From NCBI GenBank assembly GCA_963789345.1, contig CAWBKR010000027.1:53065-77064 (forward strand): a stretch of 24,000 bases of DNA, written 5' to 3'. This DNA is from an uncultured Actinomycetota bacterium (lineage in GTDB: Bacteria; Actinomycetota; Actinomycetes; Propionibacteriales; Propionibacteriaceae). The position numbers were made by a program, and so were the translations under genes. Of the stretch, positions 7,662-16,850 are shown one piece after another. The notes under the pieces are model-generated. The model made no database searches. It was given only the letters and a program-made list of their open reading frames with translations, and had not been told where the DNA came from. Position 1 is the stretch's first letter; every line of letters begins with the position of its first letter.

Positions 7662-8276
7662 TCAGTTCCAGGTGGCGGCGATCGGGGTGTACGAGCGACC
7701 CAGCACTCGGGGCAGCACCGCGACGACCGGTCGAGGGAGGGCGTGATTCAGGTAGGTCCGTTCGTCGGTCCCGGCGCCGTCCAACAGCCAGGCCAGGTAG
7801 GCCGCGGCCGACGGCAAGCTCTGGGTCTTGCGGATCTCGACCTGGGCGCGCTTCATCGGAGGCGTGTCGGCCACCAGGGCCATCACCGGCTCGAGGTCGC
7901 GCTCCTCATGGGCGAAATGGGTCTCGATCGAGTCGCTCAGCGTCGAGAAGGCCGCCTTGGCCCGGTCGACCTGGGCCTGGCTCGGTTCCGCCGCCAGCTC
8001 CGCCATGGCGGCCCGGGTCAGCGTCATGGCCTGCGCCATGCGTTCGTGCTCGCCGTTCAGATCCTTCACCAGGGTCTGGTCGGCTCCGAGTTCTCGGAGG
8101 GCCGGCCAGAAGATCTCTTCCTCGCTGTGGTGATGGTGCTCGAGCTGGCCGTCGAGGAAGCGCCACGCCTGGTTCAGCTGCTCGGCACGTGGCTTCGACC
8201 CCACCGGAAAGTCCTCGAGAGCGGCGGAGAAGCGGGCGATGTCCCGCCGTACGGCGGCGTGGATCACGGTGTTCAT
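7662..8276 (-). CDS. hemerythrin (HHE cation-binding) domain protein
   Basis: 204 aa: MNTVIHAAVRRDI...LEHHHHSEEEIFWPAL...GEHERM...ETHFAHEERDLEPV, showing paired His/Glu metal-ligand motifs. It starts at ATG 8276. The longer ORF-track call (to 8846) runs through the hairpin and the hypE 3' end and is not credible. Confidence 0.8.
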   Translation of the reverse strand: MNTVIHAAVRRDIARFSAALEDFPVGSKPRAEQLNQAWRFLDGQLEHHHHSEEEIFWPALRELGADQTLVKDLNGEHERMAQAMTLTRAAMAELAAEPSQAQVDRAKAAFSTLSDSIETHFAHEERDLEPVMALVADTPPMKRAQVEIRKTQSLPSAAAYLAWLLDGAGTDERTYLNHALPRPVVAVLPRVLGRSYTPIAATWN

Positions 8277-8367
8277 CGTGAGGTGTTCCGGCACCTTCGT
8301 GATGCTAGTGCTCCACACCGACGCTCGCTCCGACTTCAGCCAGGTCAGAGCGTCGTAGCGTCCGGAA

Positions 8368-8441
8368 CCCAGGCGCACCCCTTCGTCGCCAGTTGCACCC
8401 CCATGTGAGGGTGCAACTGGCGACGTAAGGGTGCGCCTGGG
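8368..8441 (-). terminator. very long inverted repeat (33-nt arms, 8-nt loop) after hypE; putative terminator, processing site or operator
   Basis: The left arm cccaggcgcacccCTTCgtcgccagttgcaccc (8368-8400) pairs with the right arm gggtgcaactggcgacGTAAgggtgcgcctggg (8409-8441) across the loop ccatgtga. Pairing is 13 + 16 bp around a 4-nt segment in which 2 of 4 positions still pair. No U-tract follows it. Confidence 0.45.
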
Positions 8442-8478
8442 GGTTGGGCCTGCAGGAGGGGGCCTGGAGGAGGTCCGG

Positions 8479-9552
8479 TCAGCAGATGCGGGGCAGCTGT
8501 TCGCCCAGCGGCATGTCAACCACGCGGGTGCCGCCGAAGGTCGTCTTCGCCACCACCATGCCCGGATGATCGCCCACGCACTCGCCGATGATGGCGGCGC
8601 CGGTGCCGAGCGGGTGGGCCTGCATCGCAGCCAGCACGGCGTCGGCGTGTTCCCGGGGGACGAAGGCGACGAGCTTTCCCTCGTTGGCGACGTAGAGCGG
8701 GTCCAGTCCGAGCAGGGCACAGGCGTTGGCCACGTCCGGCGGTACGGGGATCGACCGCTCCACCAGCTGGACGCCGACACCGGCGGTGCGGGCGATCTCG
8801 TTGAGCGAGGTGCCCAGTCCGCCGCGCGTCGGGTCGCGCAGCACATGCAGATCGGGGCAGACCTTGATCATCTCCGCGACCAGCGGATGCAGGGCGGCAC
8901 TGTCGGTGATCATCTGCGTGCCGAACTCGAGCCCTTCCCGGACGCTCATGATCGCGATGCCGTGCACGCCGATCGGACCGCTGACGATGATCACGTCGCT
9001 GGTCTGGGCGCGCCGCGGATGGATGTCCACCCCGGCCGGCACCTGTCCGATGCCGGCGGTGTTCACGTACACCTGATCACCGTGGCCGGCGTCGACCACC
9101 TTGGTGTCACCGGTGACGATGCTGATCCCCGCGGTCCGGGCGGCGTCGCCCATGTCCTGAGCGACCCGGCCGATCACCGCCAGGTCGGTGCCCTCCTCCA
9201 GCACGAAACCGCACGAGAGGTACGCCGGCACGGCCCCGCTCATCGCCAGGTCGTTGATGGTGCCGTTCACGGCGAGATGCCCGATCGAGCCGCCGGGGAA
9301 GAACAGCGGCCGGACCACGAAGGTGTCGGTGGAGAACGCGAGCCGTACGCCGCCCACCTCCACCACGGCCGAATCGGTCTCCCCGCCACCTTGCTGACCC
9401 CCGAACGCCGGCACGAAGAGATGTTCCACCAGCTCGGCCGACATCTGGCCGCCACCGCCGTGACCCATCACCACCTGCGGGCTGTCCCGCAGCGGCAGCG
9501 GGCACGTCCAGCTCTCGAAGTCCAGGGCCGTGCCGTTCGCGACCTCAGACAC
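8479..9552 (-). CDS. hypE: [NiFe]-hydrogenase maturation protein HypE (carbamoyl dehydratase)
   Basis: The protein reads ...CPLPLRD...VVMGHGGGG...TGDTKVV... and ends with the C-terminal PRIC motif. The GTG start at 9552 overlaps the hypD stop by 8 nt. Confidence 0.93.
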
Positions 9553-10666
9553 CGGCCACCTGCTTCTCCACCACCGGCAACGACAACCGGCGGTAGAGGT
9601 AGTAGGCAGCACAGGCGCCCTCGCTCGACACCATGGTGGCGCCGAGCGGGTTGCGAGGCGTGCACTCCTTGCCGAAGGCCGCGCACTCGTGCGGCTTGAT
9701 CAACCCCTGCAGCACCTCACCGCTCCGGCAGATCGTCGACTCCTGGGTGTCGATGCCGGTGACCTCGAAGCGGTACTCGGCGTCGAACTCGCGGTACCTC
9801 TCCGACAGCCGCCAGCCGCTGTCCGGGATCACGCCGATGCCGCGCCAGCCCCGGTCGGTCACCGTGAAGACGTCCTCGAGCAGCGCCCGCGCCGCCGGGT
9901 TGCCCTCCGCCGGCACCGCGCGCCCGTACGCGTTGTCGACTCTCGACTCCCCCGCCTCGAGCTGGTGCACCGTACGGCGGATGCCCTCCAGGATGTCCAG
10001 CGGCTCGAATCCGGTCACCACGATCGGCACCCGGAAGCGCTCGGCGAGCGGCGGGTACTCGGCCGTGCCCATCACGCTGCACACGTGCCCCGCGGCCAGG
10101 AAGCCCTGCACGCGGCAGGTCGGCGACGTCATGATCGCCTCGATGGCCGGCGGCACCCGCACGTGGGAGACCAGCATGGAGAAGTTGTCCACGCCCATCC
10201 GCTTGGCCTGGTAGACCGTCATCGCGTTCGGCGGGGCGGTGGTCTCGAAGCCGATGCCGAAGAAGACCACCTGCCGGTCCGGGTTCTCGCGGGCCAGCTT
10301 CAGGGCGTCGAGCGGCGAGTAGACCACCCGTACGTCGCCCCCCTGGCTCTTGATCCGGAACAGGTCCCGGTCGCTGCCCGGCACCCGCAGCATGTCCCCG
10401 AAGGAGCAGAAGATCACGTCCGGCCGGGAGGCGATCTCCAGCGCTTTGTCGATCAACTCCAGCGGCGTGACGCAGACGGGGCAGCCGGGGCCGTGGATCA
10501 TCTCGATCTGATCCGGGATCAGCTGGTCGATCCCGTGCCGGATGATCGAATGCGTCTGGCCGCCGCACACCTCCATCAACGCCCAGGGCCGGGTCACGGT
10601 GGCGTGGATGTCGTCGAGCAGCCGCTTGGCCAGGTCCGGATCGTTGAACTCGTCGATGTACTTCAC
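9545..10666 (-). CDS. hypD: [NiFe]-hydrogenase maturation protein HypD
   Basis: [17 protein letters not shown]...CGGQTH...[10 protein letters not shown]...FETTAP... The GTG start at 10666 forms a GTGA overlap with the hypC stop. The extension to 10951 in the ORF track is Arg/Gly-rich and implausible. Confidence 0.93.
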
Positions 10667-10953
10667 TTCGGTACCTCTTCCCCAGCTTCCTTGGCCGCGC
10701 GGGCCCAGGCGTCGCCGAACTCCAGGTCCAGCTCGCCCATCCGCTCGAAGTTGGCCAGCGTCTCCTTCGCCGACCGCTCGTCGAGCCGCTGCAGCGCGAA
10801 GCCGACATGGACGATCGTGTAGTCGCCGACCTGAAGGTCCGGGACGAACTCGCAGCAGACCTCCTTCTCGACACCCCCGAAATCGACGGCGGCCATGGTG
10901 GTTCCGTCCTTCTCCCAGGTACGCAGCACCGCACCCGGCACGGCTAGACACAT
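10663..10953 (-). CDS. hypC: HypC/HupF-family hydrogenase chaperone
   Basis: The protein has the MCLAVPG N-terminus (essential Cys2). A GGAAGGAG Shine-Dalgarno sequence lies 6 nt upstream. The start overlaps the hypF 3' end by 10 nt. Confidence 0.9.
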
Positions 10954-13286
10954 ACCGGACTCCTTCCTGTTCTCACACTCGCTCCGATGATCAGCTGGCC
11001 GAGGGCGATCCCGGCGTCACTGGGCGGCACCTGCCGATGTCGCAACACGCGGAAGTCTCTGCCCTGTAGACGTTCTGTACACAGGCGGGTCAGCAGCACG
11101 TTGAGGAACACGCCACCGGAGAGCGCCACGGCGGTGATCGCGGTTCGATCCCGGAGCCGTTCGGCGACCATGATCACCAGGTCGGCCACGGCGAGGTGGA
11201 ATCGCGCGGCGATGACCGAGGCCGGCTCGCCCCGCCGGACGTCCGCCGCCGCAGAGCGCAGCACCGGGCCCGGGTCGGCGGCGAGTTGATCATCGACGCC
11301 GAACCCGTACGGATGGTCGACCCGGTCGATCTCGCTGCGGGCCAGTCCCTCGAAGCGCATCGCCGCCTCGGCCTCGTACGCCACGCGGTGGCAGACCCCG
11401 GCGAGCGACGACACGGCGTCGAACAGCCGGCCCATGCTGGAGGTCGGTGCGCTGTTCAGTCCGGTGTCGAGTTGCCGGCGCAGCACCGCGCGCTCGGCCG
11501 GGCTGCACGCCGCCACGCTGGGTAGGCCCAGATCCCACTCGAGGCCGGCGGCGTCGAGATGGGACAGTGCCATCCGGCACGGGTTGCGGATCCCGGCGTC
11601 TCCGCCGGGGAGTGACACGTAGCCCAGGTGGCCGACCCGCCGGTAGTCGGCGTACGTCGCGATCATGAACTCGCCGCCCCACACCGCGCCGTCGTCGCCG
11701 TAACCCGTGCCGTCGAAGGCGAAGCCGATCACCGGCTCATCGTTCGGGTGATCGTTCTCGGCCATCGCCGAGGCGAGGTGCGCGTGGTGGTGCTGAACCC
11801 GGACGAGCTCCCGACCCTGAAGATGCTCGGCGGCCCACGCTCCGCTCCGATAGCCCGGATGGCGGTCGGCCACCAACAGCTCGGGGGCCACCCCGGTCAC
11901 AGTCGCCAGATGATCAACGGCCGTGTCGAACGCGCGCAGCGTGGCCAGGTCGTCCATGTCGCCGACGTGCCCGCTCAACCAGGCGTACCGCCCGCCGCCG
12001 ATCGCGAAGGTGTTCTTCAGGTCACCACCGACGGCGAGAGCTGGGGGAATCGGCAGCGGGAGCGAGATCGGCAACGGCGCGTACCCGCGGGACCGGCGGA
12101 CCGGCAGTTGCTCACCATTCTGATCATGAGCGACGATGCGGAGCACGGAATCGTCGCAGGGCACGTGGATCGGGCGGTCGTGGCTCAGCCACGCGTCCGC
12201 GATCGCCGCGAGCCGGATCCGGGCGTCGTGGTCGTCGGTCACGATCGGCTCGCCGGCCAGGTTGCCGCTGGTCAGCACCAGGGCCGCCGGACCAGGCGGA
12301 TCGCCGGGCAGCCCGAAGAGCAGTCGGTGTACCGGCGTGTACGGCAGCATGACCCCGCAGTCCGGCGAGTCCGGGGCTACGTCGGCGGCCAGCCGCAGGG
12401 TTGGCAAGGCGCATTTGGCAAGCAGGACCACCGGCCGCCGCCGGTCGGTGAGCAGGGCCCGCTCCGCCTCCGAGAGCTCGGCCAGCCTCTCGACCGTCGA
12501 CAGATCCGCGACCATGATCGCGAACGGCTTGTCGCCGCGGTCCTTGCGCTTGCGCAGGGTGGTCACCGCGGTCTCGTCGGTCGCGTCGCAGGCCAGGTGG
12601 TAGCCGCCGAGACCCTTGACGGCCACGACCGCTCCGGCGCTCAGGAGCCGGCGGGCCCCGGCCAACGCCTCCGCACCGGTGAGGTCGCCGACACCCGGCT
12701 GGTGCAGGGTGAGCGTCGGCCCGCAGTCGGGGCAGGCGACGGTCTGGGCGTGGAACCGGCGGTCGGCGGGATCGGCGTACTCGGCCGCGCAGGCTGCGCA
12801 CAGGGGCAGATCCGCCATGGTGGTCAGCGGTCGGTCGTACGGCAGGTCGGTGATGATCGTGAAGCGGGGACCGCAGTTGGTGCAGCTGATGAACGGGTGG
12901 CGGTAGCGGCGATCGGCCGGATCGGCGAGCTCGGCCAGGCAGTCGTCACAGACGCCGACGTCCGGGGAGATCAGCGTCCGACCGGGACCGGACGCGGAGC
13001 CGCCGATCACGAACTCGGTCCCGCCACGCACCGGTGACGCTTCGACGCTGATCGCGGTGATCTCGGCCAGGGGCGGGAGTTCCGTACGGAGTCGCGCCCG
13101 GAAGTCGAGCAGGGCAGACGGTTCGCCCTCGATCTCGATGATCACCCCGGAGCTGTCGTTGGCGACCGAGCCGGCCAGTCCAAGCCGTCGGGCCAGGGCG
13201 TACACGAACGGGCGGAAACCGACCCCCTGCACGACTCCCTGCGCACGTATGCGGTGCCGGGCCCGTCCCTCAGCCATGGCCGACAC
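10944..13286 (-). CDS. hypF: carbamoyltransferase HypF
   Basis: 780 aa with an acylphosphatase domain ([13 protein letters not shown]), two Zn-finger CxxC pairs (CDDC...[12 protein letters not shown]...CPDCGP), and YrdC and Kae1-like domains. An alternative ATG lies at 13277. Confidence 0.95.
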
Positions 13287-14067
13287 CTACTGCCCGCCGC
13301 TCGGCCAGTCGGGCGTTCACGATCTCGATGTGCCGGCCGCTGTAACGCTGGAGGGCCGCATCCTGCTCGTCGCTGATCACGTCGCAGACCCAGTCCCAGT
13401 GCAGGGCGACCCGGTCGCCGACCGCCATCGCCGACGACAGCCCCACGCCGTCGATGCCGCGCCGGACGGTCTCGGTCAGGTCGGGCCCGAGGGCGAGCCG
13501 CTCCCCGTCCCACCCGAGCCGGGACGACGAGACCACCGTGTGGTCGCTGCCGACCTCCAGCACGACGCCGGAGCGGATGCGGCACCGGTCGAGCACCCGC
13601 ATGGCCTGGGGCGTCCGCCGCGGATCGCCGAGCATCCCCACCCACGGGTAAAGACACAGCACGGTGAAGCTGTGGTGCGGCAGGGTACCGGCGTCCAGCG
13701 CCTCGGCCAGGTCGGCGAAGAGGGGACCGCACCGACCACGGAACACCTCCCGGACGGCCGGACGTAGGTGGTCGGACCGCACCTGGTCGAGCGCCGGACC
13801 ACCGAGCCAGTAGGCCTCGACGATCGCACGGTCCAGCGGGTCGGAGATCGCGGCGACATCGGCGATCAGCTGCAGATGCGGCAGGGCCCCGTCGAAGTCC
13901 CGCGCCATGGCCCGCAGGCCTTGATCATCGCCGGTCACCCCGCGGGAGAAGAAGGCCGCGCTGTCGTCGGGTCCGCAGTAGCCGAGATCGTTGGGTGCAA
14001 AGGCGTACCGGGCGAAGAGCACCGGACCGCTGGCGCGACCCGGCGCAGCCGCCTCATTCGTCCGCAT
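13270..14067 (-). CDS. conserved hypothetical protein of hydrogenase maturation clusters (function unknown)
   Basis: 265 aa from ATG 14067: MRTNEAAAPGRASGPVLFARYAFAPNDLGYCGPDD... It overlaps the hypC-like stop by 14 nt and the hypF start by 8-17 nt. Codon third positions are GC-rich. Confidence 0.75.
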   Translation of the reverse strand: MRTNEAAAPGRASGPVLFARYAFAPNDLGYCGPDDSAAFFSRGVTGDDQGLRAMARDFDGALPHLQLIADVAAISDPLDRAIVEAYWLGGPALDQVRSDHLRPAVREVFRGRCGPLFADLAEALDAGTLPHHSFTVLCLYPWVGMLGDPRRTPQAMRVLDRCRIRSGVVLEVGSDHTVVSSSRLGWDGERLALGPDLTETVRRGIDGVGLSSAMAVGDRVALHWDWVCDVISDEQDAALQRYSGRHIEIVNARLAERRAVGVGHG

Positions 14068-14308
14068 CGCGTCCACGACCCATGAGCTCCAGGCCCTGCA
14101 TGGCCCGCTCGGCGCCCGCGGCGTCGACCTTCTCGACCGCGAAGCCCATGTGGATGAGCACCCAGTCGCCCGGCGCGACGTCGGCCTCCGGGTCGGGGAG
14201 CATGCCCAGGTTGATCCGCCGTGTGGCCCCCTCCACATCCACCAGCGCGAGCATGCCGCCGTAGCCGTCGACGCGCTCCACGACCTGGCCGGGAATCCCG
14301 AGGCACAC
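14054..14308 (-). CDS. hypC: second HypC/HupF-family chaperone
   Basis: 84 aa with the MCLGIPG N-terminus. It starts 3 nt after the endopeptidase stop. Confidence 0.88.
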   Translation of the reverse strand: MCLGIPGQVVERVDGYGGMLALVDVEGATRRINLGMLPDPEADVAPGDWVLIHMGFAVEKVDAAGAERAMQGLELMGRGRDADE

Positions 14309-14311
14309 GGG

Positions 14312-14839
14312 TCAGCCCGCCCGACTGGGTTCGGCCGCCTCGGCGCGCGAACCGGCCGATGCCCACGGCCGGGTAGCCAACAGCTCCCGGACCGACCGCG
14401 CCGACTCGATCACCGCGATGGCCATCGCCTCGCTCAGGCCGATGCCCTCGTCCAGCTGGATCGGGTGCGCGCCGACCACGTACGCCGGCGGTAACCGGCC
14501 ACCCAGCGCCGGCAGTCCGGTCAGCACCGCGACGGGGTTCATCGCGTGCGGGTCGCCGGCACCCTCCAGTCCGGTCAGGTCCTCGCTTCCGATCTGGAGC
14601 ACCACGGTCTCGCCCGGACGCCCATGTCCGGGCAGGGCGTCGACAACGACCAGGGCCTCATAACCGTCGAGCAGGTCGTAGAGGAGATGCACCCCGCGGA
14701 TGCCGTAGTCGACCACGCGGACGTCGGCCGGCAGCGGATCAGCCTCTGGCGCGATGAGCCGGCGGACCACTTCGGGTCCGAACCCGTCGTCGCCGAAGAA
14801 GAGGTTGCCGACTCCGGCGACCAGGACGCCAGGGGTCAT
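14312..14839 (-). CDS. hupD: hydrogenase maturation endopeptidase (HupD/HyaD family)
   Basis: MTPGVLVAGVGNLFFGDDGFGPEV...VVDYGIRG...VVVDA matches the family pattern. The start forms an ATGA overlap with the upstream ORF. Confidence 0.9.
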   Translation of the reverse strand: MTPGVLVAGVGNLFFGDDGFGPEVVRRLIAPEADPLPADVRVVDYGIRGVHLLYDLLDGYEALVVVDALPGHGRPGETVVLQIGSEDLTGLEGAGDPHAMNPVAVLTGLPALGGRLPPAYVVGAHPIQLDEGIGLSEAMAIAVIESARSVRELLATRPWASAGSRAEAAEPSRAG

Positions 14840-15165
14840 GGGCTCTCGCTCAGGTCCTCACCACGAGGGGTGCCCGGCACGTGCGCCGGCCCGACGCCGG
14901 GGTCGCTGTCCTCGTTCTGGGGCGTCTCTCCGGCTGGCTGCTCATCGGCCGGGTTGGCCGTAGCGCCTCGTGCGGTGTCGCTCGGATCGGGGGCCTTCAT
15001 CTCGGGATCTTCCACCGGCCCGGTGGCCCCGCCGACCTTGGCGCCGTCCTTGGTGCTCTCGGCGGAGCTGTCGATGTCGGCGCTCTCGCGACGACCCTCG
15101 TACGGCGGCAGCGCCCGGCCTCCGGTGTCCGGGGCGTCACCGCCCACATGGGAATCTGTGCTCAT
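14836..15165 (-). CDS. small acidic, Pro/Gly/Asp/Glu-rich intrinsically disordered protein (109 aa), unknown function
   Basis: A GAGGAGGA Shine-Dalgarno sequence lies 3-5 nt upstream of ATG 15165. Third codon positions are GC-rich and the stop forms an ATGA overlap with the endopeptidase start. There is no hydrophobic core. Confidence 0.7.
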   Translation of the reverse strand: MSTDSHVGGDAPDTGGRALPPYEGRRESADIDSSAESTKDGAKVGGATGPVEDPEMKAPDPSDTARGATANPADEQPAGETPQNEDSDPGVGPAHVPGTPRGEDLSESP

Positions 15166-15191
15166 CGTTCCTCCTCGTCCCTTGGGTCTGA

Positions 15192-15407
15192 TCAGCCGCC
15201 GTCGCCGGTCGGCAGGTCGGGACCGCCGTGCTCGGGCGTCTGCGCATCGACCGAACTATCCGGGTCCGCGTCGTGATCCTCGGTCTTGCCGGTCGGTCGG
15301 TCGGCGGGACCGCCCGACGGCTCGTCGGAACCGGTGTCGCGCGAGCCCATCGGGCCGCGTTCGCTCTGCGGTTCTTCGGACAGCTGCGCGCCTGGGGTGT
15401 CGGTCAT
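15192..15407 (-). CDS. small acidic intrinsically disordered protein (71 aa), unknown function
   Basis: An AGGAGG Shine-Dalgarno sequence lies 5 nt upstream of ATG 15407. Third codon positions are GC-rich. By my count there are 17 Asp/Glu against 4 Lys/Arg. Confidence 0.65.
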   Translation of the reverse strand: MTDTPGAQLSEEPQSERGPMGSRDTGSDEPSGGPADRPTGKTEDHDADPDSSVDAQTPEHGGPDLPTGDGG

Positions 15408-15432
15408 CGCGTCCTCCTGCCAATTCGGCCGC

Positions 15433-15552
15433 TCACATCGAGCGGATCTTGAAGTACCGGCGGATGTCGGGGATGGACACGATGCTGATCACCGCGAAAC
15501 CGACCGCCGCGGTAATCAGCAGGCCGGTGGTGACCTTGCCTAGCGTCCTCAT
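15433..15552 (-). CDS. 39-aa single-pass membrane peptide, unknown function
   Basis: MRTLGKVTTGLLITAAVGFAVISIVSIPDIRRYFKIRSM has a 21-residue hydrophobic helix flanked by basic residues. 36 of 39 codons end in G or C. The ATG at 15552 forms an ATGA overlap with the stop of the 433-aa gene. Confidence 0.65.
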   Translation of the reverse strand: MRTLGKVTTGLLITAAVGFAVISIVSIPDIRRYFKIRSM

Positions 15553-16850
15553 GAGGGGTTCTCCTTTCCATGTTCGGCCTGGGAGTTCGGCGTCTGGACG
15601 GGTAGGGGCTCCAGCTCGTCCGGCGCGAAGTACAGGTAGCGGCCGTACCAGTCGTGCAGATCGGCCGCCGGGTCGTCGGCCAGCACCACGGCGACGTGCA
15701 CACCGCCGTCCACGTCGGAGAGCACCGCGGTCACCCGGGCCACTTGGTCGGCGAAGAACAGATCCTGGGCGTCTGCACGGCGGCTGGGGTGCAGCCGGAC
15801 CAGGCTGCCCTTGCTGACGCTGCGCCCGTCGACCACGACCGCGTCGACCTCCGGCTGCGCCTGCTCGTCGACGGCTGGATCCCACCAGGGCTGCTCGCCT
15901 GGCTCGAACGTCGACGGCGTGGACAGTTCCGGCGGACCGGCCGTGTGCGGGCTCCGCAGCGCCCCGTGCAACCGTTGCAGTTCCTCCGGGGTCATGTTCT
16001 CGCAGCGGTCGACGATCTCTGCCGCCCGGGGATCGGTGGCCCGGGCCTCGGTCTTTTCCTCTTCGGTCATCGTCAGGACCCGCAGCGTCAGGATCTCGTC
16101 GATCTCGGTCGAGTCGAACAGGGCCCCGGCGCTCTCCGGAGCCACCTCCGGATGGTCGTACACGATGATCGGTGAGGCGAGGACGACATCGGTCGTGCCG
16201 GGCGGGCCCGCGAGCACGGGCCAGCAGCGGTGCTGCCGGCACCCTGCGACGATCGATTCGGCGTCGGCCGGAGGGTCGAGCAGGGAGACGAATCCGCGGC
16301 CGGTCACCTCGATGAGCAGATGGGTGCCGATCAGTGAGGTCCGGAGGGCTTCGTCCTTGGTTCCCGACCTCGAGGGGGCCCGATTCTGCACCTCGAGCGA
16401 CAACCGAGCGTAATCACCCAGGCGCGTTGCGTGACTGCGGACTTCTGCGGCGAGCGGCCAGCGCGTCCGTCCGACCGGGTCGGGGTCGTTGCCGCCGGCG
16501 ATGGCGACGGGGTCGATCACCACGGTGGTCAGGTCGGCCAGCCGGCGTTCCGGCAGACGCACTTCGTGCTCGACCGCCTCGTCCCAATCGTCGGCGCTGC
16601 GGTGCTGCAGCTGGAGGAACCGCAGGTGCACCGTGATGTGGGGCTCGGGCTCCCCGGGAGGCGCGTGCAGCAGGCATTGCGTGGCGAGCCGCGGGTCGTC
16701 CCCGATCCCGTCCTCGGCGGCCCCGGGTGGGCCCAGGACCCCGAACTGCCAGCGCAGCTGATTCTTGGCGGAGGTCGACCGGTACGGGTAGAGGAGATAA
16801 CCCTCGTACAGCACCGCGTCGGCCACCGCCCGGGCGTCCGTGAGACTCAC
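15549..16850 (-). CDS. conserved hypothetical protein of group 1h hydrogenase clusters (433 aa)
   Basis: The GTG start at 16850 forms a GTGA overlap with the upstream stop. The protein begins VSLTDARAVADAVLYEGYLLYPYR... I recognise no catalytic motif. Confidence 0.8.
   Translation of the reverse strand: MSLTDARAVADAVLYEGYLLYPYRSTSAKNQLRWQFGVLGPPGAAEDGIGDDPRLATQCLLHAPPGEPEPHITVHLRFLQLQHRSADDWDEAVEHEVRLPERRLADLTTVVIDPVAIAGGNDPDPVGRTRWPLAAEVRSHATRLGDYARLSLEVQNRAPSRSGTKDEALRTSLIGTHLLIEVTGRGFVSLLDPPADAESIVAGCRQHRCWPVLAGPPGTTDVVLASPIIVYDHPEVAPESAGALFDSTEIDEILTLRVLTMTEEEKTEARATDPRAAEIVDRCENMTPEELQRLHGALRSPHTAGPPELSTPSTFEPGEQPWWDPAVDEQAQPEVDAVVVDGRSVSKGSLVRLHPSRRADAQDLFFADQVARVTAVLSDVDGGVHVAVVLADDPAADLHDWYGRYLYFAPDELEPLPVQTPNSQAEHGKENPS

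Follow-up and report, generated by a model that had tools for sequence, protein, structure and literature searches.

Group 1h [NiFe]-hydrogenases take up a large share of atmospheric H2. The enzyme of Mycobacterium smegmatis, Hhy, is found in the membrane fraction only, is not released by 5% cholate and has no obvious transmembrane regions (10.1101/769216), and there is no cytochrome b in the Hhy operon (PMC6883350). Mycobacterial and verrucomicrobial enzymes alike are membrane-bound without a known transmembrane segment or cytochrome b (10.1101/769216; PMC6883350; PMC7174314). The group 1h enzyme of Ralstonia eutropha is cytoplasmic and of low affinity, and membrane association ‘seems essential’ if affinity is to be high, a partner not yet known possibly providing the link (PMC7174314). 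Here we describe an hhy operon from an uncultured Actinomycetota bacterium of the Propionibacteriaceae, contained in a window of 24,000 nucleotides (nt), by which we mean the whole stretch of DNA analysed (GenBank assembly GCA_963789345.1, contig CAWBKR010000027.1, positions 53,065 to 77,064). Between the gene of a conserved 433-amino-acid (433-aa) protein and that of the maturation endopeptidase the operon holds three short open reading frames (ORFs) of 39, 71 and 109 aa, referred to below as the trio. The first encodes a small predicted membrane peptide of the DUF6893 family, which we propose as a candidate membrane anchor of Hhy. The other two, judged by alignment, are the halves of one modular acidic protein.

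The trio lies on the minus strand (Table 1) and had been picked out in a sequence-only reading of the window, whose coordinates, protein sequences, codon bias, residue charges, ATGA overlaps and Shine-Dalgarno sites all agree with the DNA. At both of its ends the trio is joined to the neighbouring gene by an ATGA overlap, formed by the TGA that closes the 433-aa gene with the ATG of the 39-aa ORF, and by the stop of the 109-aa ORF with the start of the HycI/HupD-type protease gene. An AGGAGG stands 5 nt before the ATG of the 71-aa ORF and a GAGGAGG 4 nt before that of the 109-aa ORF. The 39-aa ORF has G or C at the third position in 36 of 39 codons, and the GC content at third codon positions (GC3) of the three ORFs is 0.90, 0.82 and 0.81, with 0.85–0.92 in the adjacent operon genes. 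All three are also called as genes in public records. The ratio of nonsynonymous to synonymous substitution (dN/dS) against the nearest relative is 0.29 for the 39-aa ORF, 0.20 for the 71-aa ORF and 0.17 for the 109-aa ORF. The trio is thus under purifying selection and resembles its operon in codon usage. A comparison with related hhy operons, which the sequence-only reading had called for, found homologues at the same place in 80 loci from genomes and 78 of 80 from metagenomes. The view that these ORFs are translated rather than spacer is well supported by their conservation, common orientation, signs of translational coupling and selection. When the DNA of the trio was scanned for RNA elements, no Rfam family and no promoter-like or terminator-like site was found in it.

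The 39-aa peptide belongs to a family that is catalogued and has no assigned function. It matches PF21833 (DUF6893) with 46.1 bits against a gathering cutoff of 24.6 (E 5e-12, model positions 2–32 of 32), its relatives carry the RefSeq label ‘DUF6893 family small protein’, and it has its length and the ending P-D-x-x-R-Y-x-K/R-x-R-x-M in common with WP_407665350.1, WP_420872535.1 and WP_418303059.1. The trio had been called unassigned as a whole. Because of the Pfam match and the RefSeq name this does not apply to the 39-aa peptide; it stands for the 71- and 109-aa proteins, which have no Pfam or NCBIfam match. A search of a full-text literature library found no paper naming DUF6893. The predicted helix of the peptide spans about 19–21 residues (19-residue Kyte-Doolittle maximum 2.24), its basic C-terminal tail is SIPDIRRYFKIRSM, followed by the stop, and its isoelectric point is 11.6; it is the sole basic protein of an otherwise acidic operon. 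In an alignment of 76 copies the length is 39 aa throughout, the two exceptions having an ambiguous start and being extended by start-codon choice. The helix varies in sequence and retains its hydrophobicity, and the tail S-[IL]-P-D-x-x-R-Y-[LFMV]-[KR]-[IM]-R-x-M-stop is almost invariant. Of 75 loci, 46 have the DUF6893 start overlapping the stop of the 433-aa gene by exactly 4 nt, and in 73 the two are at most 10 nt apart.

The peptide is easily overlooked. On the M. intracellulare plasmid NZ_CP012886.2 (locus L083, 6326–6453) it is present as MQIVGWVFIAIVGLIALVGLVMGLVSLPDAKRYLKIRRM, with the RefSeq entry WP_418303059.1, at a site where the plasmid table, incomplete by design, shows no gene. 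In a mycobacterial-type metagenome-assembled genome (MAG; L034, 7308–7447) a frameshift interrupts the DUF6893 ORF, so that this copy is a pseudogene unless the assembly is at fault.

Two collections of loci were compared: a genome set of 80 actinobacterial group 1h loci, retrieved via alignment of 433-aa homologues as the anchor, and a metagenome set of 80 loci carrying the 71-aa gene. In the genome set DUF6893 is located directly 3' of the 433-aa gene in about 79 of 80 loci; tblastn, run without composition correction, gave 75 loci, and reading of the gaps added four copies and one frameshifted copy. All mycobacterial loci examined, which do not include that of M. smegmatis itself, carry the peptide. 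It is absent from the operons of Cupriavidus necator pHG1 and Methylocystis and from those of a second actinobacterial clade (Streptomyces fungicidicus, Embleya, Kitasatospora and Streptantibioticus). In four of the DUF6893-free operons the protease gene comes close behind the 433-aa gene: annotation or sequence shows the two overlapping in Cupriavidus, S. fungicidicus and Kitasatospora and 63 nt apart in Methylocystis. Fusion of a DUF6893-like helix to the 433-aa protein was considered for the peptide-free operons and rejected for the three homologues read: the translated 433-aa homologues of Cupriavidus, Methylocystis and S. fungicidicus have no hydrophobic tail. Among the top 120 homologues of the 433-aa protein none is flagged with PF21833. 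Presence of the peptide was also tabulated against the Cys-rich C-terminal domain of HhyE, with 68 loci having both, four DUF6893 only, six neither and none the domain only. Strict co-occurrence was rejected on account of the four exceptions, all Micromonosporaceae loci (L009, L024, L057 and L063, from Asanoa, Paractinoplanes and Actinoplanes), in which DUF6893 is present and HhyE is short, consisting of the NifU part only.

The 433-aa protein is the probable cytoplasmic partner of the DUF6893 peptide, since its stop codon overlaps the DUF6893 start. It has more than 8000 homologue clusters, yet belongs to no Pfam or NCBIfam family, and contains invariant cysteines (C-x-Q-H-R-C). Its AlphaFold2 model is mediocre (mean predicted local distance difference test score, pLDDT, 67; predicted template modelling score, pTM, 0.55) and combines an N-terminal domain rich in beta structure, a middle part made of helices and, at the C-terminus, a small barrel with weak resemblance to PetP and to BAH/SH3-like folds. 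A PDB search returned no relative for the 433-aa protein or for the trio; the HhyL large subunit matched 5AA5 only.

As a single-pass membrane peptide, DUF6893 would, by the positive-inside rule, have its N-terminus outside and its conserved basic tail in the cytoplasm. Its synthesis would be kept in step with that of the 433-aa protein through the overlapping stop and start codons. With the helix in the membrane, the invariant tail of 12–14 residues may dock the cytoplasmic Hhy complex, probably through the acidic 433-aa protein that is co-translated with it, and DUF6893 would in this way supply tight membrane attachment to an enzyme lacking any known transmembrane segment. The proposal of a single-pass peptide as candidate anchor, already made from the sequence, fits the literature on membrane-bound Hhy (10.1101/769216; PMC7174314). 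Because mycobacterial loci carry DUF6893 and the Cupriavidus operon is without it, matching published localisation, the peptide is a concrete anchor candidate; this agreement between its presence or absence and the published localisation extends to two organisms. The present analysis establishes where DUF6893 sits in the operon, that it is coupled to the 433-aa gene and that the cytoplasmic Cupriavidus-type operon lacks it. A conserved, coupled 39-aa membrane peptide in nearly all sampled actinobacterial operons is a single gene to target for the anchor question.

The 71- and 109-aa proteins had been suspected of being a tandem duplication. This candidate relationship was rejected, as hhalign gives the pair a probability of 0.25% (E 0.24) and the best BLASTP match between them has an E value of 0.38. 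Instead, at least eight single proteins of 150–165 aa (P0369, P0376, P0379, P0390, P0394, P0415, P0421 and P0440) match, over their full length, the 71-aa sequence followed by the 109-aa one, and this collinearity identifies the two ORFs as halves of one protein. The fused forms lack only the junction, which comprises the Gly-rich C-terminus of the 71-aa protein and about 16 N-terminal residues of the 109-aa protein. One of them (P0415) is found in the identical slot, in the order 436 aa, 39 aa, 162 aa, HycI; another adjoins hypA, and a separate 69-aa and 137-aa pair lies directly after hypE. Forms of about 170 aa carry at their C-terminus a module like the ‘RP-x-G-x-S…D-x-T-x-VDP’ stretch of the 71-aa protein, so the motifs behave as movable modules. 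In the window the two ORFs are in different frames with a 26-nt spacer between them, and simple read-through is therefore excluded. They are collinear halves of one modular protein that was either split here or fused elsewhere. The AD-x-DSS motif and the likeness of the MTDT and MSTD N-termini, which had hinted at duplication, are peculiar to this genome and not a feature of the family. In Streptomyces camponoticapitis (L036, 7621–8382) the 71-aa homologue has no stop and continues in frame into the HupD protease, a fusion that may be natural or the product of a sequencing error.

The two halves contain 17 acidic and 4 basic residues (71 aa) and 23 acidic and 8 basic residues (109 aa). In 33 sequences of the 71-aa family there are 21 invariant columns within residues 6–40, which form the core G-x-x-L-x-EEPQ-x-ERG-x-x-GSRDTGSD-x-P-x-x-GP-x-x-RP-x-G. 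In 41 sequences of the 109-aa family 16 invariant and 27 near-invariant columns are spread over five motifs: PPYEGRRE-x-AD, GGATGPV-x-D, KAP-x-P-x-x-T-x-RG, SPADEQPA and GVGPAH-x-x-GT-x-RGED. We asked whether the ‘GPAH’ of the last motif mimics the protease cleavage site of HhyL and rejected the idea, the HhyL tail (…PCGVH/MYLGGGQKLERMHSPTEYVAG) bearing no resemblance to it. A word-indexed search returned 319 clusters at 90% identity for the 71-aa and 628 for the 109-aa protein, all named ones being ‘hypothetical protein’. A full scan with a hidden Markov model (HMM) of 1.84 billion 50%-identity representatives gave 115 members of the 109-aa family, confirming it with HMMER E values down to 5e-44. 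Median dN/dS over all pairs is 0.36–0.42 in both families, with synonymous sites near saturation. At divergences that leave the 433-aa protein about 55% identical, homologues of the two proteins retain 50–80% identity. Neither protein, nor any of ten relatives, has a Pfam or NCBIfam match at E values up to 1–10. None of the trio matches a Hyp, Hup or Hox family, as the sequence-only reading had supposed, and for the two acidic proteins the HMMs of the known [NiFe] accessory families (HypA-F, HupF/G/H/J/K, HoxO/Q/R/T/V and HyaE/F) gave no match. A literature search found no description of acidic disordered proteins in hydrogenase operons.

Both proteins had been described as acidic and disordered, and the Uversky charge-hydropathy plot places both on its disordered side. 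AlphaFold2 modelled the 109-aa protein with a mean pLDDT of 62.5, a pTM of 0.18 and no secondary structure, with pLDDT above 70 only over two motif-bearing stretches. They are accordingly predicted to be intrinsically disordered, the 71-aa protein judged from composition alone and the 109-aa protein also from its model. Neither contains Cys and each has two His, the sole invariant one being H95 of the 109-aa protein; the His/Cys clusters of nickel-binding tails (HypB, SlyD and Hpn type) were looked for in both and are absent. Gly makes up 16.9% of the 71-aa and 13.8% of the 109-aa protein, and the grand averages of hydropathy (GRAVY) are -1.44 and -1.10. Hydrophilins, by the criteria that Garay-Arroyo et al. 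are said to have set in 2000, have more than 6% Gly and a mean hydrophilicity above 1, and the physico-chemical properties of both proteins lie within these criteria. The acidic pair is an uncatalogued family of motif-rich disordered proteins with split and fused forms.

Both halves are present in 18 loci of the genome set, the 71-aa half only in seven, the 109-aa half only in one and neither in 54. On the neighbour-joining tree of the 433-aa protein their presence is patchy, with sister loci differing, and truncated 71-aa remnants persist in S. atratus and Nostocoides. No sampled operon of Mycobacterium (30-odd), Rhodococcus, Arthrobacter or related genera contains the pair, and these operons keep DUF6893. 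Repeated loss and patchy distribution show that the disordered protein is dispensable, an optional add-on, and its absence where DUF6893 is kept means that it cannot be a general membrane tether. In the metagenome set the 71-aa gene has the same hhy synteny at 78 of 80 loci, and the two remaining occurrences are on rearranged fragments that retain remnants of DUF6893. Another form, of 170 aa, is encoded two genes away from a stand-alone DUF6390. The family ties uncatalogued, motif-rich disorder to a metalloenzyme operon, as an option and not as core machinery.

Because Pro, Tyr, His, Gly and Arg are conserved position by position in a protein unable to fold alone, binding to a folded partner through conserved short linear motifs is suggested, and because its genes are placed almost exclusively in hhy or hyp clusters that partner would come from the hydrogenase or its maturation machinery. 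By analogy with hydrophilins and ‘Hero’ proteins, the disordered protein may be a dispensable assembly or stabilising factor specific to its client; an enzyme that works during dormancy would be well served by hydrophilin-like properties. The explanation that we favour for the whole is that DUF6893 serves as the membrane dock of Hhy and the split protein as a dispensable assembly or protection factor. We give it a probability of roughly 0.4.

Several observations weigh against this explanation. The contrast between operons with and without DUF6893 comes down to a few deep clades, about one or two evolutionary events, localisation has been measured for two enzymes only, and DUF6893 has been seen in mycobacterial loci other than that of M. 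smegmatis. Docking to Hhy and anchoring would follow from synteny and comparison; with so few clades and two localised enzymes, the anchor role is one that we infer. The Methylacidiphilum enzyme is weakly membrane-associated, and its published hhyS-hhyL-hupD cluster lists no DUF6893-like gene (PMC5364354). That cluster was judged from the published gene list, and it indicates that other membrane routes probably exist. For the disordered protein the proposed binding partner is a class only, a hydrogenase or maturation protein, and most operons do without the protein. In Mycobacterium MAGs (L177/L178) a fused homologue of 160 aa stands alone, away from hydrogenase genes, so the family may not be hydrogenase-specific. 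That gene adjoins those of a HAD hydrolase and of a 353-aa unknown protein, and on the opposite strand nearby are genes for a cyclic-nucleotide-monophosphate (cNMP)-binding oxidoreductase, zf-UBP, thioredoxin, ClpB, HspR, DnaJ, GrpE and DnaK. The charge of the operon proteins is the same with and without the disordered protein, and DUF6390 presence does not track it, the relation being if anything inverse. A basic partner for the disordered protein was also sought among the operon proteins, and none was found.

DUF6893 might act in some way other than as an anchor, either serving a membrane respiratory partner as small accessory subunit or regulator, as CydX does cytochrome bd, or being a maturation-stage factor that acts together with the 433-aa protein and the protease. 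Many respiratory complexes have single-helix subunits, the peptide and the Cys-rich C-terminal domain of HhyE mostly, if not strictly, occur together, and the DUF6893 gene sits where the structural genes give way to those of maturation (protease, HypC). However, the conserved part of the peptide is its soluble tail and not its helix, which argues against helix-helix packing in a membrane complex, and it is tightly coupled to a soluble acidic protein, the 433-aa neighbour. We consider such a role distinctly less probable than docking.

For the acidic proteins the main rival is that they are general stress hydrophilins, giving non-specific protection in drying or dormancy and recruited into some operons without a specific partner. 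Their Gly content and GRAVY agree with this, as do their dispensability, their patchy occurrence and the stand-alone homologue of the Mycobacterium MAGs with its neighbouring thioredoxin and chaperone genes. Those chaperone genes are on the opposite strand, however, six position-specific motifs are more than bulk protection needs, and 78 of 80 metagenome occurrences are within hhy operons; we regard a general hydrophilin as rather unlikely. Much less credit can be given to the roles suggested from the sequence, in which the acidic proteins are electrostatic tethers or scaffolds between the hydrogenase and the basic DUF6893 tail, or buffers of Ni or Fe. The pair does adjoin the only basic protein of the operon and has many conserved Asp and Glu. 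Yet a general tether or anchor would not be absent from all Mycobacteriales and Micrococcales operons sampled and lost repeatedly while DUF6893 is kept, and the Mycobacteriales without the pair include a lineage with measured tight membrane binding; members of the family are also found away from DUF6893. Metal buffering has no specific support: with no Cys and two His per protein, none of the latter invariant in the 71-aa protein, the family offers the single invariant H95. The low-complexity composition of the acidic ORFs, the truncated remnants in some lineages and a 423-aa antisense shadow ORF, an example of the long chance open frames that occur in this genome, could suggest that they are non-functional, fast-evolving spacer kept open by chance in a GC-rich genome. 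Their high amino-acid identity, dN/dS of 0.17–0.42, hmmsearch significance, conserved start, stop and Shine-Dalgarno sites and a GC3 that is highest in the called frames leave next to nothing of this reading, which is effectively refuted by the conservation data.

A stronger form of the docking proposal can be worded, in which DUF6893 is the Hhy anchor that explains both tight membrane binding and atmospheric H2 scavenging and the disordered protein is dedicated to hydrogenase; this full combination we hold to be doubtful. If it were true, the DUF6893-free Cupriavidus enzyme would be cytoplasmic and of low affinity for want of the anchor, and the split acidic protein would be without precedent as a disordered protein dedicated to hydrogenase. 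It would then be a protectant, an assembly factor, or a regulator engaging the DUF6893 tail as the only basic element of the operon.

The operon is read on the minus strand in the order HypB, HhyS, HhyL, NifU-type HhyE, DUF5947, DUF6084, the 433-aa protein and the trio, followed by the HycI-type protease, HypC, DUF6390, HypF and further hyp genes, with HypE last. The features of the trio and its immediate neighbours are collected in Table 1.

Table 1. Coordinates, in the window, of the trio, its spacers and the two flanking genes
Feature	Position	Strand	Evidence
DUF6893 small membrane protein (predicted), 39 aa	15433..15552	-	Pfam PF21833; MRTLGK N-terminus, hydrophobic helix, basic tail
Spacer, 25 nt, from DUF6893 stop to 71-aa start; AGGAGG inside	15408..15432	-	Sequence
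Acidic protein, predicted disordered, 71 aa; N-terminal half of split protein by alignment	15192..15407	-	Conserved core; collinearity with fused forms
Spacer, 26 nt, at the split point, with GAGGAGG; junction absent in fused homologues	15166..15191	-	Sequence; alignment
Acidic protein, predicted disordered, 109 aa; C-terminal half of split protein by alignment	14836..15165	-	Motifs; AlphaFold2
433-aa conserved protein without Pfam family	15549..16850	-	Stop overlaps DUF6893 start
HycI/HupD-type hydrogenase maturation endopeptidase	14312..14839	-	PF01750, TIGR00072; start overlaps 109-aa stop

The antisense open frame of 423 aa (14546–15817, plus strand) spans the trio, has the wrong codon-position GC pattern and is not a gene. 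The DUF6390 gene (13270–14238, minus strand) has an ambiguous start, the longest ORF (322 aa) overlapping HypC and the public call being 268 aa. HypF is a single 780-aa ORF in the window (10944–13286); a near-identical ENA contig (L085, 8131–10465) has two gene calls in its place, 513 and 273 aa long, likely through a frameshift or assembly difference. The hypE gene occupies 8479–9612, and an ORF that begins inside it (7662–8846, minus strand) encodes a hemerythrin HHE domain at residues 196–320, just 3' of hypE, which may be linked to O2 or iron handling in aerobic hydrogenase maturation. Among the loci compared, two scaffolds of one Cryobacterium melibiosiphilum assembly (L076/L077) gave identical tblastn coordinates and identities for the hhy genes, either by duplication or by assembly redundancy. 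The hhy operon of a MAG labelled Candidatus Sericytochromatia (L064) falls within the Mycobacterium clade of the 433-aa tree, which suggests a mis-binned contig or a recent transfer.

The anchors of other uptake [NiFe]-hydrogenases, namely the cytochrome b HyaC/HoxZ, the C-terminal helix of group 1 small subunits and HucM, have the job here proposed for DUF6893, that of holding the enzyme near the quinone pool. DUF6893 has no sequence relationship to them, has no haem ligands and would carry no electrons. Like the tail helix of the group 1 small subunit it is a single helix, but it is encoded by a separate gene of 39 aa, and it is not a large scaffold such as HucM of the mycobacterial hydrogenase Huc (PMC10017518). 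Hhy itself faces the cytoplasm and has no twin-arginine translocation (Tat) signal. Single-helix subunits of the CydX type resemble DUF6893 in size, in having one helix, in being encoded in the operon and in being easily missed; unlike them, DUF6893 has its conserved portion in a soluble basic tail and its coupled neighbour is soluble.

With hydrophilins, LEA-like proteins and ‘Hero’ proteins the disordered pair shares Gly richness, hydrophilicity, disorder and dispensability, and one homologue is located near stress chaperone genes. It has no homology to the Pfam LEA, dehydrin and KGG families, however, and differs from them in being strongly acidic, in having six motifs and in occurring almost always in hydrogenase operons. 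Pup is likewise an actinobacterial protein of about 60–70 aa that is acidic and disordered with a Gly-rich C-terminus. Membership of the 71-aa family in Pup was considered and rejected: there is no Pup Pfam match, and the family ends in GDGG, SGGG or SGGN, or loses this end in fusions, where Pup has GGQ or GGE.

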